DNA of 64,000 nucleotides. Source: Psilocybe cubensis (Eukaryota). A program made the translations under genes and the position numbers. Under the pieces are notes generated by a model. That model worked only from the letters and a program-made list of their open reading frames with translations. It made no database searches and was not told the DNA's origin. The stretch spans positions 62,001 to 126,000 of the forward strand of contig CM039007.1 in the NCBI GenBank assembly GCA_017499595.2, in the 5' to 3' direction. Numbering within the stretch: the stretch's first letter is position 1; the number at the start of each line of letters is the position of its first letter. Of this stretch, positions 9,061 through 46,018 are shown in pieces.

Positions 9061-11158
9061 TTACACCTCCGTCATTATATCATTCCATCCATAAACGTGC
9101 TGGTTTTGTAATCCTCCTACAAGCCAGATTAACATACGACCTAAACAAACACATGCATTGCGCTAGACTTACATTTTCCCCTCGTGCGCGGGTCGTTTCC
9201 CTTGTAACTAGGACATGGACGTGATTTCCATCGCCGGTCATATCATGTGCCCCTGCTCCTGTACTAGACACTGCACCCAAGGAAATACTATTCCATTCAA
9301 GATTTTCACTCTCTGACTTCGACTTTTGGAGAGTGTTTTGACGGGAATTGAGACTAAAGAAACACGGTAAGACCAAGGTGAGTAAAGCACAGCGTTCCCT
9401 TTCTAGCATCAGTCATACGTTGCCAGAGCACTATTCATGTATACTGTAGATGTCAGATTAATCATTGGTTTTCTCTGACTTAAATCCACATACATTTTCC
9501 GCTCAACTCAAGACCGATGAAAAAGTAAAATGTCCCAGGAAGGGCGAGAAACTGGCGATGAGATGAATTATTATAATGACAAGGAAGAAGTAGGCACAAG
9601 AGCCGACGCACCAGGACCGTGTTTAGCAATGCGCATATAGATGTTAATATTCCTCTGTTGACGGCATATACAATGAGGGTCGTCAAAATATTGTTGCTTC
9701 TATATACATAGGTGTTGAGCATCACAGCGTGCACTCCTGTTAAAAGGAGGTAAAACATACGATTTCATATTACCCTTGCGTTTTGATAAATATGTTACCA
9801 ACGACACAGTGATAATACAGTCACAAATGACTGTTGCAACCGCTTGTAACGATAATGCTGCCTGTATAAGTCGTTAATGCACAGTTAGGATATGGTCCCT
9901 CTTAGGTAGTAGCGTGGCAGAGCTGTATTTACTTTGGCATTGAACAATTGCAGAAATGAAGTCATACGAAGCCTGTTTCATGAATCAGCACCAATAATCT
10001 AATGTAAGCATAGAAGAAAAACCAAACATACGTCGTAATAGTCTGGGCTTCAGTGAAGTCAATAAGAATAGATATTGTCCGCAAATGAAAGAGTCTATTT
10101 ACCCAGGCCTGAGCCTATGGTGAAAGTAAGAGGAATCCACTGTCAATAAAGCGGAAGTTGGTCAACAGCTGGGATTGATACATACCAATCTGTACCACAG
10201 CTAGCGCAAGCTAGAAACCTAATTATCAGCCAAACCGATTTATGTATCATTACAATGTTACTGCAAACATACAATGATTCCAGGAATGATGAAGTTTTTT
10301 TTGTTTACTGTCATCAGAACGGAGAATTTGAGGTGGAAACCAATTTCTGAGATAGATCGTGTCTTACACACGTAAATGCAATACGCATAATATCTATACA
10401 ATATTGAGAAATATTTCTCGGCATTGAAGACGTGCGACTAACATTTGTACAATGAACGCAGAGGCATACTGATGGTTTGAAGCACATTCATAAATCTGAA
10501 CATCGTGACAGAACAAAAACTGGAACGAACCATTGCAAACAGCTGGGCCTATAACACTAGAGTTAGACCAATATACAAACGCTCATAAGATCAATAGACT
10601 GACTGAATCTTCCCTAGATAATCGCGTTGAAACAATCAGGTAATCTGCTAGTTTATCATTGTAAATTTCATAGCTTGCCAATGTGTCATCATCAGCCCAG
10701 GGAAGTTTCCAAAGTTCTGAATGAGGTATTTGTAGGTGACCTGGACAAACACTACTATTTGGAAGGTTTCAATCAACCTATTGTCGAGATGTTAGTACAA
10801 ATTACGAGCACGTTAAACCGTACAAGTCGTACACCAATGACATGACCTATAAATGCACAAGCTATTGATTGGTCGCGAAGATGGATAAAGATTATATTTG
10901 ACTTACCATGCCTTTAATCCCCCAGTGATCCTTGGTGTACCAGTGGAAGTACAACCATCCCTGTAACATACCGCAGCCTTGAAGTCTAATGGCAATAAGC
11001 AGTGCCGCCAACAGATTCAAATGATGCAACATGGCTTACAGGGTCTGAAGCCAAACAATAATGAACCAGATACCATAGGTTGGTCCTATGGGAAGTACAT
11101 CATCCTTTGTTGGGAGGTTCATCTACGCAGTGTAGAACACAACATCATTGCATGGCAT
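9061..11158 (-). CDS. Multi-exon fungal integral membrane protein (DUF6534-like, 7TM-like); start approximate
   Basis: Many short exons. Readable peptides include GPTYGIWFIIVWLQTL, YGCMLQGWLYFHWY..D, NNILTTLIVYAVNRGILTSICALLNTVL, FLALPGTFYFFIGLELSGK, YMNSALAT and LNSRQ, the usual DUF6534-type TM5-TM7 pattern. Confidence 0.7.
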
Positions 11159-12711
11159 GCAACTTTATACGCTGCTCCCAGTTTCAATAATAGCAGAGGG
11201 AGAAGCTGCGTTGACTTCGTTGATCTTTCCGTAGGTGACGGGTTACTTTTAAAGTCATATCCCCCCAATTTGCATCATGATGGGAAAGATTTATTGAAGC
11301 TTCCCCGCTGTTCATAATAAACCATTCTTTGATGATCAAACGAGTGAATACATTGACGCTCCAGGTTCTCTTTCTTCTCGATTGATGATATTTTTATCTG
11401 CAAAATCAAGGGTATAAAATTACACACCGCAGCACCATAATTGTATTACCTCTAGGTTTGTTGGTGCTATAATGAGAAGATAAGTCAGGATTAATATGGA
11501 TACAACTCCGCACCCTTGATGCTAGTGCAACTCGATCTGATATTGGACAGCTAACTTAGTCCTGTTGCTGATTCTGTGGAATGGACGAGATAAGTAAGCT
11601 TAAGATATGTTCAGTCTACAAGGACACGCCCGAGATGACCATGCTTTACAGGTTTATAAGGCTATAACATTCGTTGTTTCTTTTGTAACGACTTCTTAGC
11701 CTCATCAATATGACCTATCATAATCAATTTGACGCAATAGCGTGACTTTGATTACTGCTATGGAAAACTGTTGGGAATTTTTAGTTGCAAACTTTTCGAC
11801 TGAATATTAACAGGTAATCACAACGAGCCGCCGATGACTTGTCCACAGTTGATACAATAAAATGGATACACCTAAACCCCTATGAGTCTTATATCTAACA
11901 AGGGCGTGCACGCAGATAATTGTGTAGAACGCCTGTAACCTTTTTCATTACTCTGTATGCGGTGACGTAGATACCTAAATTTGTAACATATGCCGAACAA
12001 TGGCAATTCCGGCATAAGCGATAAAAGTGTCCGCTCGTTCTAAGTCAAGCATTGGATCTTGTTTTCCAGACTGCCTGATCTTTGATTTTGTAGAAGTTCC
12101 ACTGGATCAAGAACCACCGTAGTACAGCAGCAAATATTGGATTGTATAACGGCCATGTGGATTATGATACTAGAGAGTCTTCTCTGTGAGTAAGCCGTAT
12201 CACTATCGTTGTTGTAGAGATCCCCTTGCATTCCGAGGGGTTTATTCAACACCCATAAATTAATAAACGCTAGGGAAATGCGTACCGGGAAAATGAGAAT
12301 CAATTCATTGATGTAGTATGACACAGTCCCCATGATGGACGGGTAAATTATCTTTGAGGCATATAGCGCGACAGCGAGAGAGTTCACGACATCCGACAGG
12401 GGGTGAAGAAACCCATCGCAAAACTGTGTGATACCAATGGTGACCGTGGGAGATCTTGCCGATTCTTGCCGCGAACGGTTGCCGGTCTATGTTGGGAGGA
12501 AAATGTGGATAAAAGCCTATCTGTTGAAGCGTTATTTCTGTCTAAGCGGAAATTTGGATACCAAAATATAACATGGCAGCGGGATCTAGGACCGATACCA
12601 TGTTTCTTTCGTGCGAATATCTATATCAACTCAAATGAATATCTCAGGTTCAGACTACGGTGTCCAGTTTTATCTGACAATCAAGCGTGAAAAACTAAAT
12701 TACAGACCTAT

Positions 12712-13120
12712 GATGCCGTGGTAGTACCTATACTTCAGCTAACATGTTCCGGGTGAAAGAGAACGCCGAATGCAACATTTCTTATTATTCGTTTTTTCCG
12801 CAGTCTTCGACATCGTGTGTGATACCTCATGCTATGCGCTGCCAACAGACATTATGACCAGTTCTGAAGATTATCGAACCGGAGTGGCCCCACTGCAACT
12901 ACCTTTTCAAACATGCGACGTGGGATCTTCAGATTAGATCAGTTCTTAAAACAAATGAGTTGTTGTATTTTGACATGTGGAATGTTCCAATACATGGTAA
13001 ACGTTACCTTCAATTATGTAGTACGGCAATGAACTCCGGAATGAATACCCACCTTTTACATACTTTTGATGCGTGAGGATCAAAGAGTTTACTGGTAATA
13101 TTAAATCGAAGATTTAATTT
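12712..13120 (+). promoter_or_regulatory. Conserved upstream non-coding module of peptide gene 1 (paralogous copies ~17640-18060 and ~41745-42165)
   Basis: Shared motifs cc(g/a)tgg..gta..., ggtgaaa..gaacgccgaatgca.c.t..ttatt.ttcg, and cggcaatgaa in all three copies. Regulatory function is inferred. Confidence 0.55.
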
Positions 13121-13383
13121 TGACAGACTAAAAACAATTGTTTTCATGTCCATAAATGTGATGAGTACTTGTATATTAGATTGATGAATCCCTAGCTTTA
13201 CTGTTATCATAGGTTGCCATCTATACACGTCCAATGGTGCATGAAATATTAAGATATAAATATGCCTACCCAACCCCATATAAGCTGGAAGTGTTGAATG
13301 ACTGTATACCAACAAGCAGAGCAGAGTCTTCTGTAGTGTTCAACAAAGATCTACCGTTATAGCAACTCCCACCTTACTTAATA

Positions 13384-13822
13384 ATGCGATCCCACTGCAC
13401 AATCCTTCTCTCTTTCTCTGTTATGTTGAGCACGGCGCTTCTGGCGACGGCTCAAACCGCATCAGCTCAAAGCCGTCTCGACACCTTCTGCAAGGCTGCT
13501 GAAGTCGCGTGCAGCAATGTCGAAAGCACCAAACTAGCTGCCGACTCTTCATTCACTGCACAAAAGCAAATTGATGTGCATGACGCCAAGTGAGCTACAT
13601 TCTGTTTTTCCAATGTTGCAGAGCTTTGACTTAACGTGATGTGTGCAATAAAGGGACCTCAATGCAGAGAAAGTGCCGATCCAAACCATCAAGAAAACGT
13701 GCCCCGAAGGATACGATTGGTGTATTGCAGAGTGCAAAAGTAATGTGGAAGGTGGCGTGCATGGTGGCATGCATGGTGCATATCCAGGATGTCTTTTTGA
13801 CTGCCTCCGATGCTTGTTATGA
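13384..13822 (+). CDS. Secreted Cys-rich 'CPEGY' peptide precursor, paralog 1
   Basis: Signal peptide; intron 13590-13653; exon 2 KDLNAEKVPIQTIKKTCPEGYDWCIAECKSNVEGGVHGGMHGAYPGCLFDCLRCLL*. Confidence 0.88.
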
Positions 13823-14736
13823 AGTCTTTCAGTGGGAGTTCCTCGACACACGCGGAAAATTGGATAAGAAATTTAGGTATCACTTTGGAGAAATGCTGGG
13901 CAGATATTGGTTGATGGAGTGGCTTGTAAAATGTGGTACACAAATAGTAATATATACGGAGAAAATATCTAAAAAGATGGAAAAGAAATTAGGGAATATC
14001 AGAGTGCTTTTAAGTGATCATCCAAGCTTTCTGAGGTTGGATAACGCACCAAATATACTTTGGAAAATTCTCGCTGACGCGCATCCTAGGCAGTCTCCAC
14101 CGCATTTTGTCTCTTTCTTTGGGTTACCAGATCTTATATCCTCGTATATGTATCTGTCCTGTGTGGTTATTCAAGGATATCCGACCAGCATTGTCATGAA
14201 TTGCAGTGAAAGATCGTCTCGTACTATACAATCAATATGGCTCCGAGTTAAAGCCGAATTGTTCCACTAGGACAGGATGAATGTTTTGGTCCTACAACGG
14301 TGGTTCTTCGTCCTATCTAGTATGCTTCGTGGATCTGACACAGTGAGCTTGAAGCTGAATAGAATCATAGTAAGTTTACTGACTCATTGTCGGTGGTTCA
14401 CCAGTATGATTCACCGAATCTAAAGCCCTAGCTAGCCTACACAGTTGGAACAGCTTATACAAATCAGTCAATACTGCACTTGTGCCTTTGACCAGAAACA
14501 TGAATCCTTTCAAGTAGGCTATTCCAGGAGGATCTTCTGACTTCTATTGTAATTCTGAATCCACGTCATACATGCACGCACAGCTGGTGAGATAGAAGTC
14601 AACAGAAAATGATTATTTGTGACTAATATTTGAATATTATGTTGAGAAACACTATATAAACTGGCAGCACAAGCAACTGGTATCTCAGAGCTCTTTTTTA
14701 CACAAAAACTCTAGTTTCCTCTCAATTATACCAGAA

Positions 14737-15168
14737 ATGTTTGTCCATCGTGCAATCATCACTGCCAGCTCCATCATGTTGGGGTCCGCTCTTGTAGCAA
14801 TGGCCTCTCCAGCTCTTGGCGCTGTTTCTCAAAACTCCCTCAATGCGTCTTGCAGGACTATGGCAAAGGCGTACGATGCTGCAAATCCCGACATGTTTGC
14901 ATGGTCGGATGTGCAAAAAGGCTGTACCGTGGCAAGCACAGCGGATTCAAGGTAACCAATGTTCTACGATACAATTGAGTATGGTTCATTGATTAGTCTT
15001 TACAGCCAACTCGTATCTAGGGACAAATCAGCTGCACAGTCATGTCCCGAAGGATATAGCTCTTGCATTGCCGACTGTTCCCAATATGACCCCTCTGATT
15101 ATGAGGAGGGTGAATCGGGCGCAAGCATCGGTTGCATTTTATCATGCGTCTTCCGTTGCAGTTTTTGA
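14737..15168 (+). CDS. Secreted Cys-rich 'CPEGY' peptide precursor, paralog 2 (most divergent)
   Basis: TATATAAA at 14653; signal peptide; intron 14952-15005 in the same phase as the paralogs; exon 2 ...SCPEGYSSCIADCSQYDPSDYEEGESGASIGCILSCVFRCSF*. Confidence 0.87.
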
Positions 15169-15293
15169 AGGGGTATTGGAAATAAATACACGAAAATGAC
15201 GTCTTTCTATTCAAATAATAGCCTACGCAAAGGTCTTCTTCGATAGCACTTGTAAGACGTAGCACACAAAAAAATATGTTTCCTCCTGAATGA

Positions 15294-15750
15294 TTGAGGC
15301 GTGGGAATGTTCTCACATGACTTGTGGGACTTAACCGACCAATGCCCGAACGTCCGAATATCCTGTTTCCTCCTTCCAACGCGCATGAGCATGTAGTCCA
15401 CCAAAAGAGTCAACCTGGGCCTGCTATAGAAGGTTTTAGTTATGTTACTGGGCATTTCATATGTGTCTGATGAGTCATGGTGTTTCGATATCTATCCATA
15501 TCCTGACGACTAACCCATCACTCTTCCTGTGTTCTGCAGGCTTCCCTTCCTTCTCAGCTTACGTTCCGGGTCTTCCTTCATTCAATGAATGATATCAACT
15601 CTTTCATTCCGTATCCAGAGACAACTTTCTGAGAGAAAGCTTAACGCACCCAGACAAGATGAAGGATTGGTTTGTAGACGTGGACAACAGGAGGTGACGG
15701 GAACGGCACGGACGGCGTCAGATATCAAGTCAAGGTGCGTAGTTACCTCT
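15294..15750 (+). repeat. Diverged direct repeat, copy B (copy A ~7010-7465)
   Basis: Same ordered sequence blocks as 7010-7465. Confidence 0.75.
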
Positions 15751-18700: not shown

Positions 18701-19341
18701 CTAAGACAAATGAACAACTATATTGGTTAAAAAATTAACCCTGACACTGCATGGGAGTTTTCATTGCCCTTGACCAAATCTCGATGTAAGATAAAATATT
18801 CCAGATCACACCAAACAAAGTACACTATGAAGAGTATGACTTAGGTTCTGCTATATGCACAGGAATCGAGCGATAGTGCAAACGCAAAAGAGATTATACA
18901 ACTAAAATTTATTGTCAGATAGCTTGCAAAACTGACAAGACAGATTTGCTGCAATGCTTGAGCAAGGTTTATTTTTCGTAAGCTCGTGTGCGGGACAATA
19001 CACTCGCATACTTGGTTTTGCGGGCCTTTTTACTGGTGTGGTAGAAAAATTATGTTATCCGTTAACTCGCATACTGTCCTTCCATAATTACAGGACTATC
19101 CAAGATGACTACAGATCTGAAATATGCTATGACTGAGAATGGCATCAAGATTCCAGAGTCACCATCCATACTAGTAGAAGTCCAATGGCGGAATAAATAT
19201 TTGATTTTAAAATATTAAGATGTCAGCCCAACGGTATATAAACTGGCAATATCGAACGACTGAATCCCAACAAACAGAGCAAATTCCTCTGCAGTGTTCG
19301 AACAATCTCTCCCCTCGTAGCCACCATCACTTAACTCTAGA

Positions 19342-19773
19342 ATGCGAGTACAACGCGAAATGCTCGTTCCTTTCTCCGTTTTATTGAGCACCGCGCTCCT
19401 GGCGACGGCTCAAACCGCATCAGCTCAAACCCGTCTCGACACCTTGTGCAAGGCCGCCGAAGTCGCGTGCAGCAATGTCGGAAGCGCCAAATTGGCTGCC
19501 GACTCTTCATTCACCGCACAGAAGCAAACTGGGGTGGATGATGCCAGGTGAGACACTTGTTGCTTGTCTAACGTTTCTTAACTTTGATTAACATGCCGTA
19601 TGCAATAAAGTAAATCCAACGGTGAAACAGTGCCAAACGAAACATTTTTATGCCCTGAAGGATACGATAAATGTGTTGCAAATTGTAGGGATCTCGAACA
19701 CGGTGGCTGGGACAGTGGCGGAACCGGCGCATATTTGGGATGTGTTGTGTCGTGCCTCCGTTGTAAGATATGA
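19342..19773 (+). CDS. Secreted Cys-rich 'CPEGY' peptide precursor, paralog 3
   Basis: TATATAAA at 19235; intron 19548-19610; exon 2 SKSNGETVPNETFLCPEGYDKCVANCRDLEHGGWDSGGTGAYLGCVVSCLRCKI*. Confidence 0.9.
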
Positions 19774-21016
19774 AGCAGTTGGTGGGAAGTTCTAGAAACT
19801 CGGGATTTTGGTATGGAACTCAAGGATAACCTTCGAAAAAGACCACTACGCAGAGATTAGTTGACGAAGTGGCTCATAAGACGTGGTACAAAAAAATATA
19901 ATGGCGTGTATATCTTGGTTGATTACTCTTTTCCTGTGAAACCACTGGGAACGTATAGTTCTTCCCTTCAAGGTAAACTCTGTATATATCAATGAAAGAA
20001 GCTTTACGGACCCCTGGTTTGTTAGATGTGGTGCACCAGGCGGTTTGTCTGGAGAAAATGTGTCAGAAACCATAGGAATCTGATATCCAGATTAAGAAAG
20101 TAAAGACCGTGGCCGACTCAGTTGTGGCTGTCCCATAATATGACTCTAAGGTATGTGTTACCTTTGTCCTAATCAAATGTACCCTCTGTGCATGCTGTGA
20201 TTAGGGCATAGGAAAAAATAAGTGCAGCGTAAGTGCGCAAGTGCAAAACGTGCAAATGCAAGTGCACGGTGGCTGTGCTGCAGTGCAGTGCGAGTGCATG
20301 CGAGTGCAGTGCGAGTGCATGCAAGTGCATGCAAGTGCGCGCAAGTTACGAGTCTTTACGTAAGTAAAGATGAGTTCTTTTATCCCCACAACCCAGCGAG
20401 CAAAAATGTCCTCGCCAATTGTCCCCATCAAAATATTATTGATGCGATCAATGTCGTTACCGCTATCGGTATTTTCCTTAAGCGGTCACCGGACCCCCTA
20501 AGCAACCCCTTTCCAATTCATTCTACGACTTCTTTTTACCATTGGTTACTTTAAAGGTTGTTTTTGATTTGTTTTGATCACAATGTGAATGTGCGTTTCC
20601 ATAAAATTAATTATACCCAACAACAATAGTCCTACTCAATTCACTTTTTTGCGTTGTTGTTTAATTTTTAAAACCATGTGGAACCGTCTAGCCAACGTGC
20701 TTATATATTGTACTAATACTTAGAGATGGAACAAATGCACTCTTTGAACTATGGGTCTGAAAGGTTGGAAATAGAACTGTGCAGGCACACACGTTCCTTG
20801 ATATCGGTAGCTTCATCAATCAGAGTTCAAATAGAAATAATTACGCGTTCTTGGGTTCTGGGCGTTCTGTACTATTTGAATTTGATTTTCTGATTCATGA
20901 TTGTTTCTCACGCATACCAATTTGTTCTTCCCCTACGTTGGGCGTCTATCGGCTTACGGTTAATATATTTATTGACGTAGTATAGACAATGCACTTTTCT
21001 CTGCACTGTTTTACCC

Positions 21017-23964
21017 ATGGCTTCCGCGTTATCCCCCCGTTTCCAACAGTATGTTCACTGTTTTATCTCATTTGGTTATTACTTATTTTTTAGAGTCTTT
21101 CCGCCTCCCATGGACGATGTGTACATGGATCAGATGGATCTGAAAACCCTCTACCGTTTCTCTTGGACTTGCAAGGAGCTAAACGACCGCGTTTCGGGCT
21201 ATATGCGCCGCGCCTTCCGTCCCAAAAATTTATTTGCTCCTATCTTCAAACCCAATGAACATTTGCTGTTTCGTCTTCTCCAGTTCAAGACTGGCCTGGT
21301 TATTTCAGGTTCCACCGTTTTGCATTTTACTTGTTTTAGTGGTCCAACGCAAAGCGTGGCATGACAAGACTTTACATCTCACAATTGTATAAAATATTTT
21401 TTAATCTAGATTTATATAACATAGTTAATATATATTAATATGTTCTGAATGCACAGCCAGATACTGGGCAAGGTTATGATTAATTACTATGACTTAGGTC
21501 TACTACAAGCTTAGTTGTGTCAGACACAAAAAATAGCTGCACAGGTTATAAGGCCTAATTGTAAGGAAGAACTTGTCTATTATAATTTTCATACCTGCTA
21601 AATATTGAAGAATTCCAGATCTGCTGGGAGAATCCCGTATGGAAAACTGATGGAAGAATGCTCATGTGTATGGCTGCCCAAGTGGGGACATATTTCCCAT
21701 AAATATAATTTTCTTATTTTTGAAAAGTGCATCAAGAGTGAAACAATATTGTGTGCAAAAACATTTGTTTGGTGCGCATATTTCTTTTTGGCATAGTTTG
21801 ATGTTGCTGTGAACACAATTGGCTGTGTGGAAACATATTTCAAGCATAATTTGCAAGTGTTAGTGCATTATTTCTTCCCCAAAATACATTCAATGCATGG
21901 AAAACATTATTCAAAATGACCATCTCTTGACCAAAGTGGCCAGTGCTCAATGCAAATTGAGTGTAGCGACCGTGGGAATATCCTGCGTACAGTGTGCGCA
22001 GGATATTCCCACGACCTGCTTATTAATTCACGGCCAGTACAAACACCACAGCAAGTAAAATATAATAAGATCATCTAAACTAGGACTGAAAATAATTATT
22101 ATTGCCAAAAATACTTGTATTTTACCTAAAGTATATGCAATGCATCTCAGTAATATATCAGGAATTACCAGAGAAGTTCAAGTTGCTCAATGCAAAGTGC
22201 GGCAACCGTGAGAATAACTTGCATACACTATATGCAAGTTATTCCTACAGTCTGCTTATTAATTCATGGCCAGTATGAACAGCACAACAAGTTTAATATG
22301 ACAAGTTATTTGAAGTGGCATTAAAGATAATAGCTAGATACATAATGTTTATTATTCTTTATTCTATGCCACCACAGTCTGCTAGTCATTCATGCTAAAT
22401 TTTTTTTGATAACAATAAAGCATTCTATTTACCTCTACTTGCCGTTAGAGGTGTATAAAGCATGCAAAACAGTTGGTATGTAATTGATTGTGACTAATTA
22501 ATGGCCTTAAATCAGTTGAATGAGGTCATTATTATAAAATTTTTGGTTATGAGCGATGATTATCTGTGTCAAAATGTTTAACTTGCAATTAAAAAGTCAT
22601 AATGTAATGGTATCTAATTTTGTTTTCTACCATATGGCAGCTAACCTATCTACCTAGCTAATATCTAGTATTTTAATTTCCATATTCCCTTGGTAGGAAC
22701 AAAAACTAACAGAAATTCTATGATAGTAACCGATTATTAAGTCAAGCATAACGGTTAAGTAAAAAACTGGTATTAATCACGCAATTTTGATGGCATTAAT
22801 GATTTACTGATGGGGACAATTGGCAAGGACATATTTTTGTACAGTGGGTTGTGGGGATAAAAGAACTCGCTTTACTTACATAAAGTTTCGTAATCAATCG
22901 TGCTAATATATGGATTCCGGGTGACATGGACATGTATGTCGAGCACAGATATGCTCTTCCCGTTCTTTCCTGGATGATGTCCATTGGATTTACTATCATG
23001 CCGCATCCCAAATATCCGGACAACACCACAGCGGAAAAAATTTTGAAAATGGAAAAAATCGTCCTTCAGAAACATCCTCTTCATCGACATTACAATACCA
23101 CTGGAGTGGTTGTTAACCTATGGTGCCAAGGTTCTTTTGTCCAACTGATTACGACTTGTCAATCAGTGGTAGAATGCATTTTGGGGTATCATAGCAGTAT
23201 GTCCCCAATGTCATGTGTCAAAACAATGTTAACTTCAATTTTGTTCTACTGCAGCCGGCGTCATGAATTTTGTTACCTTTGAGAAGGTGTACAGCTTGTA
23301 TCCAAATGCTACCTTTGGACATCAAGTCTCTCTGTTGCAACCTTCTGCCGACCTCAAGCGCGGGCAAAAATTTCTTGCAAAATATCATTCCCATGGCTTG
23401 AAATTTGTTCTTTCCATTCCATTGCAAACTTTGAAAATGGACCGCCATATCCAAAGCAGAATACAGTCTATCAGGGACAACGTAAATGTTGGGTATAGTT
23501 CATCTCGTGGTCATGTTCTTGTTGTGCTGGATTACGATCCTTATCCAGAGTTGTTCTCTCCTGGGATTAGACGGGCTGGTGACAGGCATTGTTGGGTTTA
23601 TTCTTTGCCTCTTTTACCCAAAGCAAATCAGACTTCCTTTGTTGAAGCCAATTCGTGGGCATTGTTGCTCAATGAATTTGATTGTTTGCATTTTGGTGTC
23701 CGTCACATCAGCGGTATCGCATTAGATTTTCACTACACAGCGGCAGATGTTTACCAATTACACAAGCGTGTCAAAAAAGCTATCAAATCCTGGGAAAGGG
23801 GTATAAGGTGTGTGCTCTTTAGTTTTAGTATTTGTCAATTTAATTCCTGTAATGTAGGCAAAAAGATGACCGTGTATATGCAACTGTTTTGTATTTGCTA
23901 TCCAGAAAGGCAGATATTTTTTGGTTGCATTGCCCTCAACCACAAAGCCTCTTGTGGAATGGAT
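21017..23964 (+). pseudogene. F-box-like plus nucleotidyltransferase-like cargo gene interrupted by a ~1.55-kb AT-rich insert
   Basis: The 5' part DQMDLKTLYRFSWTCKELNDRV...FRLLQFKTGLVISGSTVLHF (to ~21328) resumes at ~22890 as INRANIWIPGDMDMYV...VQLITT...ILGYHS|..VMNFVT...SLYP. The GS...DxD motif is split by the insert. The 3' end is approximate. Confidence 0.65.
21971..22249. repeat. Two 43-bp palindromes within a ~236-bp tandem duplication
   Basis: cgtgggaatatcctgcg-tacagtgtg-cgcaggatattcccacg (21971-22013, perfect 17-bp arms) and a decayed copy at 22207-22249. Both are followed by ctgcttattaattca.ggccagta. Confidence 0.85.
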
Positions 23965-24068
23965 ATTTGTAATTTCTTCCATCCTTAGTCAAATTTTTGT
24001 TCGAAATAAACTTGTGTTCTCGTCCTCATTCTTTTTGTCTTAATTTGTAAGTTTGACTTGCGGATGAG

Positions 24069-24250
24069 CGTGGGAATATCCTGCGTAAAGTGTCCGCAGA
24101 ATATTCCCACAGTCAACCTCTCCCGATATTCAGCCCAGTGTGGGAATATTCTGCGTACAGTGTACGCAGAATTCTCCCACGGACTTCCTCGCCGATATTC
24201 AGCCGAGTGTGGGAATATTCTGCATACAGTGTACGCAGGATTCTCCCATG
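24069..24250. repeat. Array of three 43-bp palindromes (period ~70 bp) between convergent cargo genes
   Basis: Units at 24069, 24139 and 24208 (gtgggaatat.ctgc.ta.agtgt.cgcag.at..tccca). The spacers share ccgatattcagcc. Confidence 0.9.
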
Positions 24251-24394
24251 GGGTGCCAACTAACACCTTCAGATAATTTCTGTCATGAAAATGACTTGAC
24301 AAATTATTCCTTGTTATTTACAATGTTCACGCAAATGGATTGATTGTTTGTTCAGCACATTTATGATATCCTTGTCTTTCTATGTACATATGTA

Positions 24395-25369
24395 TTAATC
24401 TTGGGACATAGTATTGCTATTGTGGACTGTGTCCTCATTTAAGCACATACGTGTCATCCTCTGTTGCGTGTCTTCAATGTCAATCTGACCTTTGTACAGC
24501 TGCCTTTTTGTTCTACACAAAACAGCAACCTGTCTTTTCGCTGGAGTATAGCGCGACCGCATTCTGAGAATATCAGCTTTCTGTTGGAAGTTATGAATGG
24601 CTATGAGACTGTTCAATGTAACATTGCTTACCTCTCTTGCCTCCTGGTCCAAGACAAGTATTCCGCGAAGAGCGACAACAAATTTGTACTTGTTTCCTTG
24701 GGCAGGAAATGCAACAAAGGCAACACTGATCTCGACAATGTCTCCAATTCGTATGGAGGCAGGATTATAAGAATAATATCTGTTGCAACATGATATTAGT
24801 TTGGTTGTGATGTGTTGTTGGTATTTTCTAAACATACCTGGCTGTTCCGTCAGGAAGTATATCCCGACGAAGAAACTGTACCTTGTTATCGATTGCGTGG
24901 ATGAAACTGTCCCCTACCATGGACGCCAACACGTTATCAGGGTTGACCAGGGGATGAAAACCTATGTTGTCAGATTTGTCTTGATATGCGGATACCTTCG
25001 TGAAATATTGGCTATGCGCATGGAAAACATTGAAACCCGTGTCTTTGTGAAGAACTGGGTCATAGCCGCTGACGCTGTCCGCGGGAAAATTGTTTGCAAA
25101 ACGGAGGAAAACTTCTTCTAGCTTTTCCATCACCTTATTGAACACAATGTCTCCGAGTCCCGTGATAGCAATGGCGGTACGTAAATATGGTTGTTGCTTG
25201 ACCGTTCTGTCGCGGCTGTAACAGTCCTCATTTGTAATTAATTCACCTCAATGGAGTGGACGTACGAAGCAGGCTTTGCCATTGGTGGTAGCATCTTGTC
25301 GCTAACTATGCCTTGGAGTCTGAATATCACTTTGTCCATTGCACCGATATCCACGTCAAAGTTGGACAT
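24395..25369 (-). CDS. Hypothetical transposon cargo protein, multi-exon (possibly beta-barrel/OB-like)
   Basis: ATG at 25369 (MSNFDVDIGAMDKVIFRLQGIVSDKMLPP). It joins ORFs 24828..25145 and 24395..24835 through short GT-AG introns. Motif PASIRIGDIVEISVAFVAFP...KFVVALRGILVLD. Confidence 0.65.
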
Positions 25370-26560
25370 ATTTATATTATATTATATATATATTATATTA
25401 TTACAAAGCGTGACGCTGAATCGTAAAGACTCGTCATGCCACGCTCCGCGGTGGCCCACTAAAACAAGTGCACGTGAGTGCACGCGAGTGCAGTGCAAGT
25501 GCACGCAAGTGCAGTGCAGTGCAAGTGCAGTGTAACACAAGTGCATGTGACATAAATGTGACATAAATTAGAAGGTTATCGGAGACGAGTCAATTATTGT
25601 ATAATTGCCAGCAGAATCTCCAGCTATAAGCATACTTTTTAATGTTACCCAATTGCTTAATCCGAATAGCGGAGGTTTTAGCAGGCAGACATTGTTTTGC
25701 TTGATGTAGTACCTCATCATTGTAGAGAGAATATTCAAACTTATTTTCAATTTATTTCGCCCCAAGTTGCCCAAAGAGAATAAAAAACACCATTCGGGAG
25801 AATGGGTACACCACACAGACCGAAATATGTAAGTTTTATGTTTCATTTGATCATACTCCAAGGCACAAGGTGTATTTACAACGAGTTCATTGGTCCATGT
25901 GACGACAGATCACAAGTCCGTGACAACACATCCCTGGCAGTGCAATGTGACATAAAATGGCGCACAAACTGTCTGAAGCATATTTTAGAATAAATAGTCT
26001 AACAGAGGCAGTATTCAAAACTAATGCTAGCAGCAAAAATTGTTCATTTGCCTCAGACCTCAGTTGTACGAGCAAAACATGGCATGTTCTCCTCACTCGG
26101 CATGCACCGGCACCTTAGTCCCGAGGAAATAATTGTGACATATTGGCACATTTGTCACACGCGACTCTGCACTTGCATTGCACTTGCATACACTTGCATG
26201 CACTTGCATGCACTTGCGTGCACTTATTTTTCTATTTGCCCCTGTTAGGAATCGACTTAAGTCAAGAGAGAAGAATGCCCAAAGACCAAGTTGATATCGA
26301 AGCTGGGGTCTGACTACTGACCCCAGGACCCTATATATACATGGAGACCGGAGTAACTACTTCCCGGACCAGAGTACTCGACATATGACAACTATCAATA
26401 GATGAAACAGGAGAACGATAGACGTGGGACCGAACACAAAGATAGAACAAGGCATGACAGCGTGGGACCGTAACAGATAACGATAACGGATAGGGGTGGC
26501 ACCAATACGTACCCTGACATCACCTCCCCTCTAAAGGTCGGTGTCCCAACGACCTGGTCT

Positions 26561-37880: not shown

Positions 37881-39139
37881 GATGCGTCAGCGTCCACCTT
37901 TTTTCTTCCGGCTTATACTACCGCGATATCGATGGCTGGGTGCGTGGGAATTTCACGCACGCCGTCCGCGATGGCTCGAGAGCGCTATAATAAGTCTCTT
38001 CGAGGCCAAAATTTAGTCGGATAGCGGTCTTTCGGTAGGATTGTGATCAAATTAGCACACAATGAATAAACTTGCAATCACATTCTCTTTGAGAGATATT
38101 TTATTTCATCAACATTGTTTAACTTGCTTCCAACAAGTCTCATTGGCATTCCTTCCTTCTAGAAAATAAATTAATCTAGCATCAAACATCCCCAACCTCA
38201 AAATAAAGCTCGCCAACTTTTGAATCTTCACGGGCGTTTGAGCACAGACACCTCGGCCTCCATTGTACCCTATTTATGAATCAGAATATACATGAACAAA
38301 AACCCTCTCCAATCGGAGACAGAGTCCGAAGTTGCGTGCCATTCACACTTACGCTCTGAATTTTCTCATTTTTTTCTTTACCATGTGTTGCTTTCTGTTT
38401 GCACAGGAACCCTTCAGAAACGAAGTTACAGAGCTCCCTATTTGTTAGCTGGCTGACCCTCTTACGCTTGAGAGCTCAGGCGACACCCGACATAGTCACA
38501 TCATGAAAGCTTGCTTCACTCCTTGGGAATCACTGACACAAGCAAGCAGCACTTTGAAGGGTCCTAATTTGACAAGCTTCTTCTTCGTAACTCATCGATA
38601 CCTCGATAATCGCATATCCCTTTCAAACTGAGTTTATTTCATGCCAACGTAAGTCGAGATCGCAAAATATGAGTACTCTAGAGCCGAATCCCCCATTTTA
38701 AGATGAAGTGTAAACATGACAATTGATTTTATTTACTTGTAAACATCCTGCTGCTAAAAATGTTATGGATGAGATGCTGTAAATCTATGTCCAGTAAGCA
38801 TAACACGCCTTCATGGTAGTAGGACTGACAAATCTAATACAAGATTCCCATAACGTCAAACACGCATACTGCTATAGCACATCGCCGCTAGTCCAAAACG
38901 CTATCAGACCTTTCAACTCTCTACAAAAGTTATCAATTAACCAACAAAAGAACACCCACCGTGTTTGATAAAATGAGGAGGCCCCGGGGTCTAAATGAGG
39001 CCTCTAAAATATATCAGGCGCCGCCGACGGATATCATTGACGTATTGTGGACACAATTATTCTGAATCGAAAGCACGAAGAAACCTAAGCAGGGTCTGGC
39101 ACAGCTCACCCATGATACCATGATTCAATTTCCAATGTA

Positions 39140-40441
39140 TTATATTTGCACAAATAATACCGGCTGAACATTTGCGGTACTGTGGGTGGTAATAGGCCCA
39201 CTGCTAGTACCCATAAGGTCGTCCGGTGGAGAATGGTCGGATTGTACTCCAGAGATGTGGGTTATAGTACCGGATGAGTCTACCATGTTGGCGTTGCTCA
39301 CAGCGAGTCTTAGAGCCATGACTGTGGGGGCAAGCCCCTGAGGTAGGCATGACCAGATCGAGTCAGTAATATCCAATAAGCGCAAGGTGTGCAAGTGCAA
39401 AGACGCCAACACGTACCGACAAGATAAATACGAATGGTTGGATGTAAGATAATGCTTCGTTAACGTTGGGCGGGATCCTGTATAGCACCGCAATAATTGT
39501 TGAAACACCGAATATTGCGAGGACGACAGAGTAGGCCGCGGACGACTCAACGATTGTAGATAGGATGTGGGCGTATCGCATGCGCATTGTTTTTCTCGCG
39601 TGGGACGTGGAGGCGTGTGAAGCGTTGTGGATCTTGTATCCAATTAGAATGGTTGTGGAAACAGTAGTGACCGTCGATGAGAGAAAGAGTGCAATGATGA
39701 CGCTGTTTGACAGGGTGGCAACTACAATATTAGAATACGTGACGTGAACCGCATGGATAACGGTGCTAATGACAGCGAATGCTGTATGGAGGTTAAATAA
39801 ACATTTTTGCAGGGCAACAAACCACCCACCGAACTCGGCGGTCAGTAACATAAATAGAACAAATGTAACCTTCAGTCGTCGTCCCCACACGTAATAACAC
39901 CTCCAAATCTGCAAAAATTTGAATGAGTTGTATTATTTTATGTGAGAGGGTTGCAAATTACTGACCAAGAGTGCGTCTGAAATTACGAATGACATACTCA
40001 GTACACAAGTTAAACCTGTATCGAACCACGACACCGGTTCCAATGTTGCATAAGACAGGGAGTCGCGCGTATCCCCTCTGGAAATGAACGTCCAGTTCAA
40101 CTTGTTCCATAGGAGTACCAGAGTAGATGATGAGAGGAAGTATAGTGCCGAGATCATGCCCAACACAATACACCGCGGCATGCCTGACGACTCACTTGAT
40201 GCTAACCAAATTTTTGATGACAGTCGGACGCCAATGATACCTCAAGACATACCATAGGCGTATACAACTCCACTGTAAACCATTGTATATACACCTGTAG
40301 GGTTTTTAGCGTAATTTGAGGTGTTTGAGCTGACATAATGTACACACCCATTAAAAATGTGTACAGCATTGTGCTGTTCAAGTCTCCCCTAATATAATGT
40401 TCCTCAACGATTGTGGGGATTGTGGAGGGAAATGTTGTCAT
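39140..40441 (-). CDS. 7TM receptor-like membrane protein, ~6 exons, apparently intact
   Basis: MTTFPSTIP...LNSTMLYTFLMG|VYTMV, ISDALL|IWRCYYVWGRR, TILIGYKI, STIVESSAAYS, GLAPTVMALRLAV...ITHISG. Confidence 0.8.
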
Positions 40442-41036
40442 CGTAGCTGCAACTAAGGCAGGAAGTAAACACGTGGGGGAATCTGTATGATGTTCGAAAG
40501 TTCATGGTATACCTTATTCCCTTTATTGCCTTTCCTCTCAGCGCTGTAACACTGAATTATTGTATGATATTTATATTCCAAATGTATACATCTGGTTTTT
40601 GACAAGAATCTTCCCTGATCATGATTTGATCCCCTACGACTGGGTGGTCCTTGATGATCTCAATATCGTATGTTTAAATTTGGAGCCACAGTGTTATTTT
40701 TCATCTGCTGTACATCATCCGAAATACTGCCGCCGCTTGGAGACGACTGAAGAATAGGAGTTGAATGTATCAATGCATTTATTAATATTTGTTATCATTT
40801 CAGCCACCAGGACTATTGGATGACCCATCCGTTGCTTCCGCCCCCGTGGCTTTGAAAAAGATTTTGGCCCTTTGAAACAGATCATCATGATGGGCGCTTC
40901 GACTTGTGCAACTTCCAGTGTCCAGTGTCATCACTGTGCATGTGGGAATATCCGGTAACGTGGGCACAGGAAATTTACCTTGCAGGGGAAGCGAGGGAAG
41001 TGCAAGGGAAGTGCAGTGTGGAAGTGCGGACAGTGC

Positions 41037-41110
41037 GACGTGCGCGAGTGGCTGAGGGACGTGCGCGATTGGCTGAGGGACGTGCGGAAGTGGCTGAGGG
41101 ACGTGCGTGT
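41037..41110. repeat. 21-bp tandem repeat (~3.5 copies)
   Basis: gacgtgcg(cgag/cgat/gaag)tggctgagg repeated. Confidence 0.8.
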
Positions 41111-42738
41111 GCATGCGCAACCGTGTTGAAGCAGGTTGGGGTGATGGAGCGTGGGATAAATTGACTTCAAACTTGTGTTGTCTTTCTTGGTCGCCACTAT
41201 TCCTCTACTATCAACAAGGCTTGTCCCACTAAAAAAGTCATATTGTAATAGATAGTAGTGTAAATAGTTGAATAGAAGTAAATTTAAAAGTTATTTAATG
41301 GATGATTGTGTATTAAGCTAAGAATTGAGGCCCGGGCTACTTTGCCATGGGTGAGCAACTATCCTTGTATGAATAAAATATTAAACCACATACCTCGAGT
41401 TCACTGTCATCCCCTTCTCAATCACCAAAGTTGAAGTAATCTGGAAGTCCACCGTATGGGTTCCACCCATCTTGATGTGGTCCAACATCGAGTCCCATCC
41501 TATCCTATCATCATTCTAGCTAAATATTATTTAACAAGACTGAATATATAGGCAAACAGTAAAAGATCAATTGAGGTAAAGTCAGACTAGTTTTTTTGGA
41601 GTTCTCTGTGTATTACCCGTCGATGCGCATGACATGCCGAGTGATTGCCGGGAGCGGGAGACCGAGCACAAACCGGGAAAACCGAATAAACGTCCACGAA
41701 GTCCAGGTTCATCCGGTATTCTGGTATAGGTAAATGCCTACTCTACCGTGGCGGTAAGTATGTACCTTGCCTTGAACTTTGAACTTTTCTGTGTTCGGTG
41801 AAACACAAGTTCAGAAACGCCGAATGCAACTTCGTTTATTTTTCGTTATGTGCGCAGTCTTGGCGCAGGCGCCGTATACCATACATACGGCACGGCATGG
41901 GTATGGGCATGGGTATGGGTATGCAACCGACGTTATGCAATGAAGGGGGTGTGCACTGTGCTAAGCGCCGCCGCCAACGCGCCTGTGATCATTCCTGTTG
42001 TCCCTCTAATATAACACTGCATCGTCAAATTTGCGCCGTGGGATTGTATGGTCATTGGTCGGACAGAGCCAGATGGGTCCTTGTCCTTGTAGTTTGACAT
42101 CGGGAATGCTGTAATGTTTAGCGTACTTTATGAATTACGGCAATGAATGTCGGGATGTGTACATGCTGTATTTCAAATGTTTGTTTTCTTCAGGATAAGA
42201 GCGGTGTGTGGTATTATGCTTAATATTAAATGGAATTTTCAATGTCCACCGACAATTGCTTTACCGGTTTGCTCAACCTTAAGCCCTTGACAATGTACCA
42301 AAATCAATGTAAGATATATGCTTTCAGGTATCATTAAACTGGACTCAAGAACATCATGAAGAATTATAACTCGAAATATGTTACATACGTGTACACCGCA
42401 CGATAGTGCGACCCAAACAGACTGTGTTACCTAAGTGTATTGTCAGGTGGTTGGCAAAAGGCGTCTTGAAGATTTACAGAGACTTTTTTGTGCGTAGGCT
42501 TGTATGCAGGGTGATATCCCTGTGGTAGAAGTTATGCCAACTTGAAACTGATGCTATCCACAATAATTACGAAGCTTAAGTACGCCACAGAAAGCGGCTG
42601 CAAAAGTCACCATCTACACAAGTCCAACGGTGGAAGAAGTACCTGGTATTTGAAATATTAATTTGTCAGTACAAACTCCAACGGTATATAAAGGCCATCT
42701 TCCAACGAACGAGTCCCAGCAAACAATCTAGCTCGAGG

Positions 42739-43158
42739 ATGTATACCCACCGCGCATTCTTGCTCTCTTTCACTGTTTTACTGAGCACCGCGCTCATGGC
42801 GACGGCTCAGGCCGCATCAGCTCAAACCCGCCTCGACACGTTGTGTAAGACCGCAGAGGTTGTGTGTAGCAATGTCGGAAGCACCCATCTGGCGGCAGAC
42901 TCTTCATTCAAGAAACAGGCCGCTGACTCAAAGTGAGTCTTGTTATTCCCTGCAATGTTGATCAAATACGATCTAACACGGCGTGTGCAATGAAGGGGCG
43001 CCACAAGAAAGACAGTGCCGATTCAAACGTTTTTGTGCCCTGAAGGGTACGATCAGTGTCTTGCGGAGTGTAGGGGGCTCGAGGACGGTGGCTTGGACAG
43101 TGGTGGAACCGGCGCATATTTAGGATGCGCTGCTTCCTGTTTGCGATGCTTGATTTAA
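42739..43158 (+). CDS. Secreted Cys-rich 'CPEGY' peptide precursor, paralog 4
   Basis: TATATAAA at 42685; intron 42933-42995; exon 2 KGATRKTVPIQTFLCPEGYDQCLAECRGLEDGGLDSGGTGAYLGCAASCLRCLI*. Confidence 0.9.
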
Positions 43159-43564
43159 GGTATTGAATGGGGATCTATGGGCTCATGAAGAAGGATAGAT
43201 AATTCAAGGAAAACTTGCGGAAAGACGGCTACGCAGAGAATGGTTGATGTAGTGACTCGTAAGACGTGGTATCAAGAATAGTATTGTGCATATTTTGATT
43301 CATACCTTTTTATGAACTATAACACTGGGAGTTGATAATCACCGTTTGAAAGTGAATCCTATCTATGTGGGCGCAAAAGGTTGTATAATACTAGCTGGAA
43401 TAATAACCTTGGACTTGATCCATGCGTTGCCTGGTTGTCCGATATTAAGTCGTAGAATCCAACGAATGACGCGCGCTAGGAATCGAATCTGGCTCAAAAA
43501 CAGGTATGAGGAAAAGATTTTTTTTGTATGAAGTCAATAATAAGACGTGGCCCGTCGAACCGAG

Positions 43565-45442
43565 TTAGGATGGCTCAATATTCGCGCTACCGTGGGTGGT
43601 GCTGGGACTACTGCTATCTCCCATAGTACCGTCCGGAGGAGAATAGTAGGATTGTAACCCAGAGATGTGGGTTATTATACCGGATGAATCTGGGAGGTCG
43701 GTGCTATTCAAGTTAAGGGCTAGTCTCAGCACCATTACTGTAGGTGCGATGATGAGCCGTGTCGCGCTACAAGCGCGGGCGCACAAATGCGCGTTCCCAC
43801 GACCTGCCGCGCGCGGCATCGACCGGTATTTGCCTTTACCCACGACTCTCGACATCCCCAATATGCCCCCCCTCGCCAACCAGACCGTCCCCCTATCAAC
43901 TTTTATTCTTTTAGACATCCTCAACTTCACCCCCTATTGCGCGCGACGCACCCCGATCAAGCCTCATGGTGTAGCCAACAGTTTTCACACGTTTCGCTTT
44001 GTTCCCACGCCTAGGCCGTCGCGATCGACTTAGAGAAAAATGCGAATTTGGGTGCTTCCTCTCGCCTCATTCCTCAGAAATGACTCCTATTTCAAATCTT
44101 CTCGTATATTCGACGCCTTTCTATTCCTCTTATGTACTAGTAGCTGTAGGACAAGTTTGGTACACAGATACTAGGCAAGTAGAGTAGCTTTTGGTCCCTT
44201 TTAGAATACCATTCCTCTCCAAGTAGCTCAATTTTGCGAAAATCACATCGATTTTACTGCGTTCCTCTGCGTCGTTTCGAATTGCGTTTTAGTCCACAGT
44301 ATACTGTGGTTAAGCAGGGCTTTGTGAAGCAACCCGCATATATCAACGCATCTTGCACGAGTGTTTGGGTGTTCTAGGCACTGCCCAGCTCGTCTCTTTG
44401 TCTTTCCACACCCATCACACTCGTCAGCGTATCAGCGAATCCCTGGGTTTGGTATGACGAACGATACGAACGATAAATTTAGTGCAGGACCAGAGATTTA
44501 TGGTGTATACAAGTATGAAAAAGTGAACACTTACTGGGGAGACAGCGCTCAACACTTGAATATAGTTCGACACTTGGCCATCAACTGATATGTCAGAATG
44601 CAACGGCAGGACTATCAACGTCACGGCATATAGCACGACGACGAGCGAGTACACAGCGGATGACTCGGCTACTGTGGAGATAATGCGTGCGTAGCGTCTA
44701 TGCTGTGATTTTCGGGCGTTCAACGAGGATGGTGATGAGGCTTTGTAGATTTTGTATCCGATGAGAATGGTTGTGGTGATGGTAGTGCCTATCGATATCA
44801 ACGTCAGTGAGAACACGATGTTGTTTGATAGCTCGACGTTTCTATCGTTTAACCCATATACAACCGTGTCAGTGATAAAGAGAGCTATTAGAGCCTTGTT
44901 CACTATCTCAAACCATGTTTTGCATTCAGGTAGCACACATACCAAGTTCGGTGGCTAACAGAAAACACAGAGCGCCTGTAACTCTTATGTGTCGTCCCTA
45001 TACGTAGTGACATCGCCAAATCTATACATTTGGTTCATAAGGCATGCTTTTATGTTGTAGATGACTGACCAGCAGTGCGTCTGAGATTATGAAGGACATA
45101 TTCTGTAGACAAGAAAATATTTCGTTGTACCATGTCACGGGGGCTACCATCGAGGAAAACTCGGAGATACGGCTACTGCCTTTCTTAATGAGTGACTTGT
45201 CAAGGAAGCACCATTGGAATAGTTGGGTGGCAAATGCTACAATGTATAGCACCGAAATGGCGGTCAATACGACCGTGACACCATAAACCACGGTATACGC
45301 CCCTATAGAGCATTCGTATCATTGACGTTTTGAAATTGAAAACTGAAAAAATACCCATGAGGAAATTGTACAGCATAGCTTGGTTTAAGCCTCCGCTAAT
45401 GAGAGCAATCTCATAGCCTGGGGCGTTCAGTGTGTCCGACAT
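43565..45442 (-). pseudogene. 7TM family pseudogene
   Basis: Same motifs as 39140..40441, but IWRCHYV*GR has TAG at 44998-45000 in place of TGG. The last exon (IAPTVMVLRLAL, 43565-43752) is separated by ~0.7 kb of unrelated sequence and has no evident acceptor. Confidence 0.75.
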
Positions 45443-46018
45443 AGTCTAGCAAAGTGTAATGGGAAAGGAATCCGACCTGTCCTGTCGCCCTTTTAAACCA
45501 TTACTTCCGAGACAGTAATGAAATGGTATATTTTAAGCCCAAAGATGTCGTTAACGTTTGAACTTCAAAGCATCACTGGAGACAATATCAAAATATCAAT
45601 TTTTATCAGAATTCAAGTACAGGATACATCTGTACTGACGTCACTGGGACGGTGAAACCCTTGGTATTCAATGAGATGGGTTATTCAAAGACGCAGTCCA
45701 ATCACCCGAATTACCGCCTTCCACAGTCAGAGATGTGAAATCGAATCATTCGAGTCCTACATATAGCCCTACTCATCAACCACTCGCTAAATCTACCTGT
45801 TGATGGTTATCTTCCTTCGAAATTCGAAATACTCAATTACACCATCAAAAAAACCGTGTATATGTACTTTAAAACCTGAGAACAAAACCACAGAAAAATA
45901 AATCGGACACTACTGGTACTAGTACTAAAAGCTACAAATGCACAATGCCCCCGTAAAATTCTACCCGCTTTACATGTATCCCAAACCAAATATCGTAAAA
46001 AATCATCACACCCCCAAC

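Follow-up and report, generated by a model that had tools for sequence, protein, structure and literature searches.

CPEGY Genes in the Window

We analysed a stretch of 64,000 nt from Psilocybe cubensis (assembly GCA_017499595.2, contig CM039007.1, positions 62,001 to 126,000 of the forward strand), hereafter the window, in which genes for small cysteine-rich proteins with a CPEGY motif are interleaved with genes and gene fossils of a seven-transmembrane (7TM) family. A preliminary description of positions 9061..45442 had seen in this arrangement a candidate ligand-receptor cluster, derived from a duplicated unit of one peptide gene and one 7TM gene. All coordinates are those of the window.

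Six-frame translation of the window revealed the CPEGY motif five times, on the + strand at 13700, 15043, 19651 and 43036 and on the − strand at 56426-56440. For paralogs 1-4 we keep the numbering of the preliminary description; paralog 5 lies beyond the range that it covered.

13384..13822, + strand: CPEGY paralog 1; exons 13384-13589 and 13654-13822, 64-nt intron GTGAG..AAG, 124 aa
14737..15168, + strand: CPEGY paralog 2 (most divergent copy); exon 1 from 14737, acceptor ambiguous (15006 or 15021), ~120-125 aa
19342..19773, + strand: CPEGY paralog 3; exons 19342-19547 and 19611-19773, 122 aa; database protein P0003
42739..43158, + strand: CPEGY paralog 4; exons 42739-42932 and 42996-43158, 118 aa
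56318..56738, − strand: CPEGY paralog 5, inverted duplicate of paralog 4; 118 aa; database model P0002

Enumeration of GT..AG introns left a single model common to paralogs 1, 3, 4 and 5, with two exons and an intron of 63-64 nt. Paralog 2, which is in tandem with paralog 1 and lies 0.9 kb downstream of it, has the same two-exon layout apart from its ambiguous acceptor. Two of the genes, paralogs 3 and 5, match the NCBI proteins P0003 and P0002 of Psilocybe cubensis. Both public models appear to be wrong: P0002 is mis-spliced and out of frame after exon 1, and in P0003 the annotated splice skips the stop, so that the eighth cysteine is lost.

The products are precursors of 118-124 aa with ~90 mature residues and eight cysteines that align in all five; they are not short peptides. 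Paralog 1 has one further cysteine in its signal region. Every precursor starts with a hydrophobic signal-like segment followed by AQA or AQT (signal peptide judged by eye), and the computed isoelectric points (pI) of the mature proteins are acidic to neutral (4.2-6.7). The ratio of nonsynonymous to synonymous divergence (dN/dS) was 0.19-0.43 in the nine of ten pairs for which it could be computed, the pair of paralogs 1 and 2 being saturated. Synonymous divergence (dS) was 0.20 for paralogs 4 and 5, 0.61 for paralogs 1 and 3 and 0.80 for paralogs 3 and 4, and was saturated for paralog 2. Because the reading frames are open in all five genes, the cysteines align and dN/dS is low, we conclude that the genes are real and under constraint, that they code for small secreted proteins rich in cysteine, and that purifying selection acts on them.

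In the half encoded by the second exon, the pairs C21-x3-C25 and C44-x3-C48 are invariant in all five paralogs. Two further invariant cysteines outside this motif flank the hairpin, and two more are found in the N-terminal part. A structure model of the exon-2 domain, based on an alignment of five sequences, shows a helix-loop-helix (helices at 16-29 and 37-49) at a mean predicted local distance difference test score (pLDDT) of 67.8. A Foldseek search with this model returned a single row, for a vicilin leader peptide (Ara h 1), whose E of 5.7 is not significant. None of the five paralogs has the CC pair of hydrophobins, and none ends in CaaX, the last cysteine being at position −3 in each.

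Word-index protein searches for relatives, with 99 and 16 candidates, yielded only two proteins each time, both from Psilocybe cubensis. Pfam gave no match for P0003, for four exon-2 translations or for exon 1 of paralog 2, and a sub-threshold chance match for exon 1 of paralog 4 (E 0.041). The best score in the Atlas search was 0.80, which is chance level, the best E in a PDB sequence search was 0.62, and two metagenome scans gave 188 and 209 pattern matches of which none was confirmed. Provisionally, the CPEGY family thus appears to be restricted to Psilocybe cubensis, as judged by searches of limited sensitivity that covered few fungal genomes. A literature search, which did not extend to bioRxiv and PDF supplements, found no paper on the CPEGY and 7TM genes of this region.

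7TM Genes and Gene Fossils

A 7TM profile made from 106 listed representatives (290-380 aa) was run over all open reading frame (ORF) pieces of the window, and BLAST was added. The profile detected three genes and two fossils; a third fossil was found by BLAST alone.

43571..45442, − strand: 7TM gene A, probable pseudogene, convergent with paralog 4 (profile and BLAST)
39140..40441, − strand: 7TM gene B, intact, divergent from paralog 4; six exons, 337 aa (our own model)
32143..33325, + strand: 7TM gene C, apparently intact, distant member; matched by the family hidden Markov model (HMM) over positions 30-299
28062..28121, − strand: 7TM last-exon fossil (tail motif only) 3′ of paralog 3; ~60 nt, 15 of 20 aa shared with the gene A tail
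31062..31259, − strand: 7TM last-exon fossil with an in-frame stop, within the direct repeat 30928-31264
34451..34648, − strand: 7TM last-exon fossil with an in-frame stop, within the direct repeat 34315-34653
28947..29708, + strand: ORF with an LPMO_10 domain (PF03067, E 2.3e-15)

Gene A carries three lesions. A TAG is found at 44998-45000, where the family motif IWRCxxVWG has a conserved W; 13 positions of the profile are gone between helices 1 and 2 (TM1-TM2 region); and ~0.7-0.8 kb separate the exon-5 donor from the last exon (43571-43750), for which we found no AG acceptor in phase. As read here, gene A is probably dead. A more proximal last exon (~44360-44441) was considered and rejected, as the last exon of gene B aligns to the distal copy only.

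For gene B, a 121-aa exon translation is 100% identical to UniRef P0001 (Psilocybe cubensis), which starts at the second exon. In a tree of exon 5, genes A and B form a three-tip clade with P0005 (support 0.98). Gene C is distant, the smallest clade with both B and C holding 84 of the 108 tips. The two direct repeats that hold the 31-kb and 34-kb fossils are 77% identical and flank the intact gene C, with the fossils on the opposite strand; the tails of these fossils resemble that of P0005. The family HMM gave no match to the 28-kb fossil at E <= 10, and the LPMO_10 ORF sits where the body of a 7TM gene upstream of this fossil would be.

The family to which these genes belong is very large, Agaricomycete and without a Pfam assignment. 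At E <= 1e-3 an exhaustive search yielded 468 clusters (50% identity), 163 of which reached E <= 1e-10, and the closest Atlas clusters were hypothetical proteins of Basidiomycota. P0001, the product of gene B, matched no Pfam family at E <= 10. The 92 relatives that were aligned, out of 150 listed representatives, have no Pfam family either; none matched the STE3 profile at E <= 0.01, and the result was the same for DUF6534 and DUF6533. Together with the signal-like N-terminus and the cysteine at −3 of the CPEGY proteins, this agrees with the earlier statement that the locus is unrelated to STE3/CaaX pheromone loci.

An AlphaFold model of the 7TM protein shows seven long helices (pLDDT 85.5, predicted template modelling score 0.80), with the last 40 residues, tail motif included, disordered. 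VIA-align placed Ste2 on top (Z 17.9, 236 residues aligned at a root-mean-square deviation of 4.2 A); class A G-protein-coupled receptors (GPCRs) came next. Rank 50 still had Z 14.2, and 49 of the 50 rows were GPCRs or a designed GPCR-like fold. Foldseek with the same model gave weak GPCR rows, the best at E 0.022 and none at <= 1e-3. The term receptor-like is therefore fair for the modelled fold only and says nothing on function.

The family has two motifs of its own, IWRCxxVWG and GxAPTxMVAR. Its conserved tail ends approximately in ITHISGLQF and is found, under a strict pattern, in 20 of the 150 listed representatives. In P0001 (residues 262-276) and its relatives the ITHISGLQF-type motif lies ~20 residues past helix 7, in the tail that is modelled as disordered. 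We regard it as a candidate docking or sorting motif.

Shared Tail and Proposed Duplication History

From the stop of paralog 4 (43158) to the stop of the convergent gene A (43568-43570) we measured 410 bp, in accordance with the ~0.4 kb given before. From the stop of paralog 3 (19773) to the tail motif at 28062 the distance is 8289 bp, or ~654 bp without the insertion described below and one copy of its target site. Both tail strings, 43655-43699 and 28062-28106, are on the − strand, and the stop-to-motif distance is ~654 bp for paralog 3 vs 497 bp for paralog 4. The homologous tail ~0.65 kb past paralog 3 that the preliminary description had noted is thus correct in distance and strand, but it is a ~60-nt fossil and not a gene.

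Within the window, the similarity of the two tails is greater than chance would give: they agree in 15 of 20 aa (tblastn E 3.7e-6) and are 87.5% identical over 40 nt (blastn E 1.2e-5) and 85.4% over 48 nt. Flank homology between paralogs 3 and 4 is confined to a 72-nt patch on the 3′ side and the 48-nt tail patch. As this homology traces both tails to one junction, they count as one ancestral adjacency (n = 1). Under random placement in the window, at least one convergent 7TM element <= 700 bp downstream of a CPEGY gene is expected with P = 0.155 for five independent genes and P = 0.094 for three. Two such neighbours would be rare (P = 0.010), but the two observed represent one inherited event.

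Paralog 5 is the youngest duplicate. Its block matches paralog 4 at 90.5% (42145-43477 against 57332-55996), and the homology stops at 43477/55996, ~90 bp short of the gene A stop. Neither gene B nor the tail lies beside it. On the gene B side the following segment is absent:

38411..42144, no strand: gene B segment missing from the paralog-5 copy; 3.7 kb, clean junction with a 2-nt filler

The joint with its filler GC was found in sequencing run X2 too. We considered the 3.7-kb segment as a mobile insertion and rejected this, as it has no duplication and no terminal or inverted repeats.

We infer the following order of events. An ancestral CPEGY gene would have stood tail-to-tail with a member of the 7TM family, and one segmental duplication would have copied this junction, giving rise to paralogs 3 and 4. 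The 7TM partner would afterwards have decayed at both copies, and a later inverted duplication would have produced paralog 5, which now has no 7TM neighbour. Of the proposed duplicated unit of peptide and 7TM gene, this much is supported: the duplication behind paralogs 3 and 4 took along no less than the 3′ end of a 7TM gene, in like orientation and at a like distance. That the unit was kept as a functional one is not supported.

Divergent Genes Upstream of Paralogs 1 and 4

Multi-transmembrane genes transcribed divergently from paralogs 1 and 4 had been reported ~2.2-2.3 kb upstream. The distances were confirmed: the gene B ATG (40441) lies 2298 bp from the paralog 4 ATG (42739), and the start of the gene upstream of paralog 1 (11032, by eye) lies 2352 bp from the paralog 1 ATG (13384). 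The two genes, however, appear to belong to different families.

9061..11032, − strand: multi-exon membrane gene of putative DUF6534 type, divergent from paralog 1; start by eye

One exon of this gene (9483-9764), compared as a single exon and not as a spliced protein, scored E 0.001 and 20.6 bits against PF20152, under the 28.2-bit cut-off. An hhalign comparison of one exon of the gene with the family of gene B detected no relation (probability 0.27%); a relation of the IWRC family to DUF6534 is not shown by this comparison but may exist. The spacer between gene B and paralog 4 holds a multi-copy repeat.

A Composite Insertion and Strain Variation

The distance between paralog 3 and its tail fossil is enlarged by a composite insertion.

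20205..27830, no strand: composite insertion of a terminal inverted repeat (TIR) element (~20205-26242) and a nested small long terminal repeat (LTR) element (26243-27825)

In the whole window, the 9-bp direct repeat TGTGATTAG is present only twice, at 20196-20204 and 27831-27839. The 23-nt TIRs at 20204-20226 and 26219-26241 are 83% complementary. Among the scanned ORFs of at least 85 aa in 20205-26242 none had a transposase domain. The ~6-kb TIR element has GCAAGTGCA-like repeats in subterminal arrays, and palindromic repeats in its interior. The nested element has a 5-bp duplication, GCCCC, and 284-nt LTRs with TG..CA ends and 99.3% identity. Its ORF (26564-27550, − strand) has a KH_1 RNA-binding domain (E 6.8e-9) as the sole recognisable domain. 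Since it has KH_1 only and no reverse transcriptase or integrase, the LTR element is non-autonomous. Its word depth is 10-40x the single-copy level in two runs.

In the DNA-like runs X1 and X2 a 13,875-nt contig leads from a CPEGY gene through 452 letters to 27830-31097, which represents the empty site. The insertion is absent from these contigs of other strains, and with its TIRs, target-site duplication and empty site it is a TIR element. These features, with the LTRs, the 5-bp duplication and the multi-copy word depth, bear out the nested transposons that had been placed at 20204-27829. In the X1/X2 contigs a 41-nt stretch at 28151-28193, just past the 28-kb fossil, is skipped.

At the position of paralog 3 (19370-19513), runs X1 and X2 have 144 nt with no difference from paralog 4 of the window (42767-42910), to which the window's own paralog 3 is only 85% identical (123/144). 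The pattern points to gene conversion among the paralogs or to an allele that has diverged.

Other Repeats and Neighbouring Genes

Word depth indicates multi-copy sequence at 26.0-28.0, 34.7-38.7 and 40.7-42.0 kb. At 34672-38673 and 40675-42008 it reaches 878 vs ~73 for single-copy sequence, and no Pfam domain was found there. Positions 36709-38410 match 59257-57329 at 94-96%, and this is therefore at least partly a dispersed repeat. The paralog-5 copy of the repeat has a 216-nt insertion with TIRs at 57597-57813, resembling a miniature inverted-repeat transposable element, which is absent from the other copy at 38142/38143.

An open ORF of 1847 codons occupies 48727-54267 (− strand) in a GC-rich block; it is very rich in Gly, Ser, Ala and Glu and has no Pfam match. 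The hydrophobic GVHGW-type segment at its end may continue into a hydrolase domain encoded by the following exon. Contigs of the runs guessed to be RNA reach 45840-46000, near the likely 3′ end of this ORF. The two runs of this kind gave only scraps of 26001-46000, none of them over paralog 4, genes A, B and C or the LPMO_10 ORF, and allow no conclusion on expression. At 60194-60979 (+ strand) lies an ORF with a Tet_JBP 2-oxoglutarate-Fe dioxygenase domain (E 9.5e-19). Genes of the Tet_JBP type are often tied to transposons in basidiomycetes.

Comparison with Known Systems

The established peptide-receptor clusters of basidiomycetes are the B mating-type loci, in which, as excerpted from PMC10282164, pheromone precursor genes lie near STE3 receptors. 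Like these, the present locus has small-protein genes interleaved with genes of a seven-helix GPCR fold in paralogous sub-units. Unlike pheromone precursors, CPEGY proteins have a signal-like N-terminus, eight cysteines, ~90 mature residues and no CaaX; the 7TM proteins match neither STE3 nor any other Pfam family, and most of the pairs are broken.

Other large 7TM groups have been reported. In an excerpt of PMC12842992, DUF6534 is, with 3893 sequences, the largest unclassified 7TM cluster and a candidate GPCR class, and other clusters have no Pfam domains. SNB1 (DUF6533) is characterised, in a section of PMC10949477, as a 7TM protein outside all GPCR classes whose mechanism is unknown. The family of genes A, B and C is likewise a large, lineage-restricted 7TM family but has motifs of its own, with 0 of 92 members matching DUF6534 or DUF6533; a DUF6534 type is indicated for one gene alone, that upstream of paralog 1.

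The cysteine motif of alpha-hairpinins is given in a part of PMC7191063 as XnC-X3-C-Xn-C-X3-C-Xn. All five CPEGY paralogs have this motif, in a domain modelled as helix-loop-helix at the pLDDT given above. CPEGY proteins differ from alpha-hairpinins in being fungal and acidic to neutral, in their four further cysteines and in showing no sequence homology. This is resemblance, not membership. The CPEGY genes are also like fungal lineage-specific families, in repeat-rich regions, of secreted proteins that are small and cysteine-rich, being orphan genes in tandem and segmental duplicates beside transposons, with a signal peptide and an even number of cysteines. They depart from these in that dN/dS indicates constraint and not diversifying selection, and in the missing hydrophobin CC.

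Interpretation of the Locus

Taken together, we consider it probable, at roughly 75%, that two unrelated, lineage-specific families undergo birth-and-death turnover in this region, which is rich in transposons and varies between strains, and that their adjacency is left over from duplication. The reading as a ligand-receptor cluster is not supported: the adjacency counts once, both adjacent 7TM copies are degenerate, and paralog 5 has no 7TM neighbour. A profile scan of the window gave exactly five CPEGY genes, with no gene or relic of this kind next to gene C or the 31-kb and 34-kb fossils; a functional pairing is unsupported. Paralogs 1 and 2 have no member of the A/B/C family nearby. We infer that the adjacency at paralogs 3 and 4 is without function, and a functional pairing of CPEGY and 7TM proteins seems unlikely. 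The reservation made in the preliminary description, that the linkage could be incidental in so large a 7TM family, is the better reading.

Several observations weigh against this conclusion. The nonsense codon of gene A was read in one assembly only. The intact gene B lies only 2.3 kb from paralog 4, and the two divergent membrane genes are spaced almost equally (2352 and 2298 bp). Between paralogs 3 and 4 the tail patch has retained more identity (85-87%) than the coding sequence as a whole (72% over 523 nt), which could reflect constraint or gene conversion, e.g. from intact paralogs, and not neutral decay; it could also be the ascertainment of the best-preserved patch.

If the neighbouring 7TM protein did sense a secreted CPEGY protein in a non-STE3 system, paralog 4 and gene B would realistically be the pair. 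That an intact gene B lies 2.3 kb from paralog 4 in divergent orientation, that the CPEGY proteins look secreted and are constrained, that the 7TM model has a GPCR-like fold with Ste2 as the best match, and that one duplication carried both CPEGY and a part of a 7TM gene all speak for such a system. We nevertheless think it quite unlikely, as the ORF of paralog 5 is intact without any 7TM neighbour, both partners in the tail-to-tail arrangement appear dead, no member of this family is near paralogs 1 and 2 and a multi-copy repeat lies within the spacer between gene B and paralog 4; the Foldseek GPCR match (E 0.022) is not significant, and a fold alone is no proof of function. A common chromatin domain or developmental programme could instead keep the linkage without any binding. 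The presence of several lineage-specific secreted and membrane genes within 64 kb fits such co-regulation, but pseudogenes and polymorphic transposons break up the cluster, which makes it rather unlikely.

The CPEGY proteins might also be secreted antimicrobials or killers from which a membrane protein protects the producer. Their CX3C...CX3C pattern and modelled helix-loop-helix recall the plant alpha-hairpinin peptides (in the part of PMC7191063 cited above), but the model confidence is moderate, the mature proteins are acidic to neutral, and four of the five CPEGY genes have no intact adjacent 7TM gene, whereas loss of immunity with the toxin kept is not expected; such a toxin-immunity pair is highly improbable. 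Finally, the 28-kb tail match could be due to chance, with no shared adjacency, given that it spans only ~60 nt and is missed by the family profile. This is scarcely credible in view of the tblastn and blastn E values, the identical strand and comparable distance and the fact that the match covers the conserved tail motif of the family. Having weighed these explanations, we prefer ordinary turnover of two unrelated families among active transposons, with adjacency left over from duplication. For the CPEGY proteins themselves our best guess, a weak one, is that they are secreted defence or competition proteins and not signals.

The analysis provides corrected gene models for a constrained, apparently species-restricted family of secreted proteins with eight cysteines. 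It describes a 7TM family, large and unnamed, whose fold is GPCR-like and whose C-terminus carries a conserved motif, and it adds a dated example of partial gene fossils that arose from segmental duplication. It is very unlikely that CPEGY proteins are species-restricted secreted cues for this Pfam-less GPCR-fold family, in which case paralog 4 and gene B would be the pair that survives and the dead copies the debris of a rapid turnover in specificity. If this were true, it would be a second mushroom peptide-receptor system, independent of STE3 and CaaX, and a functional pairing would provide the first ligand for a large orphan seven-helix family of mushroom-forming fungi.

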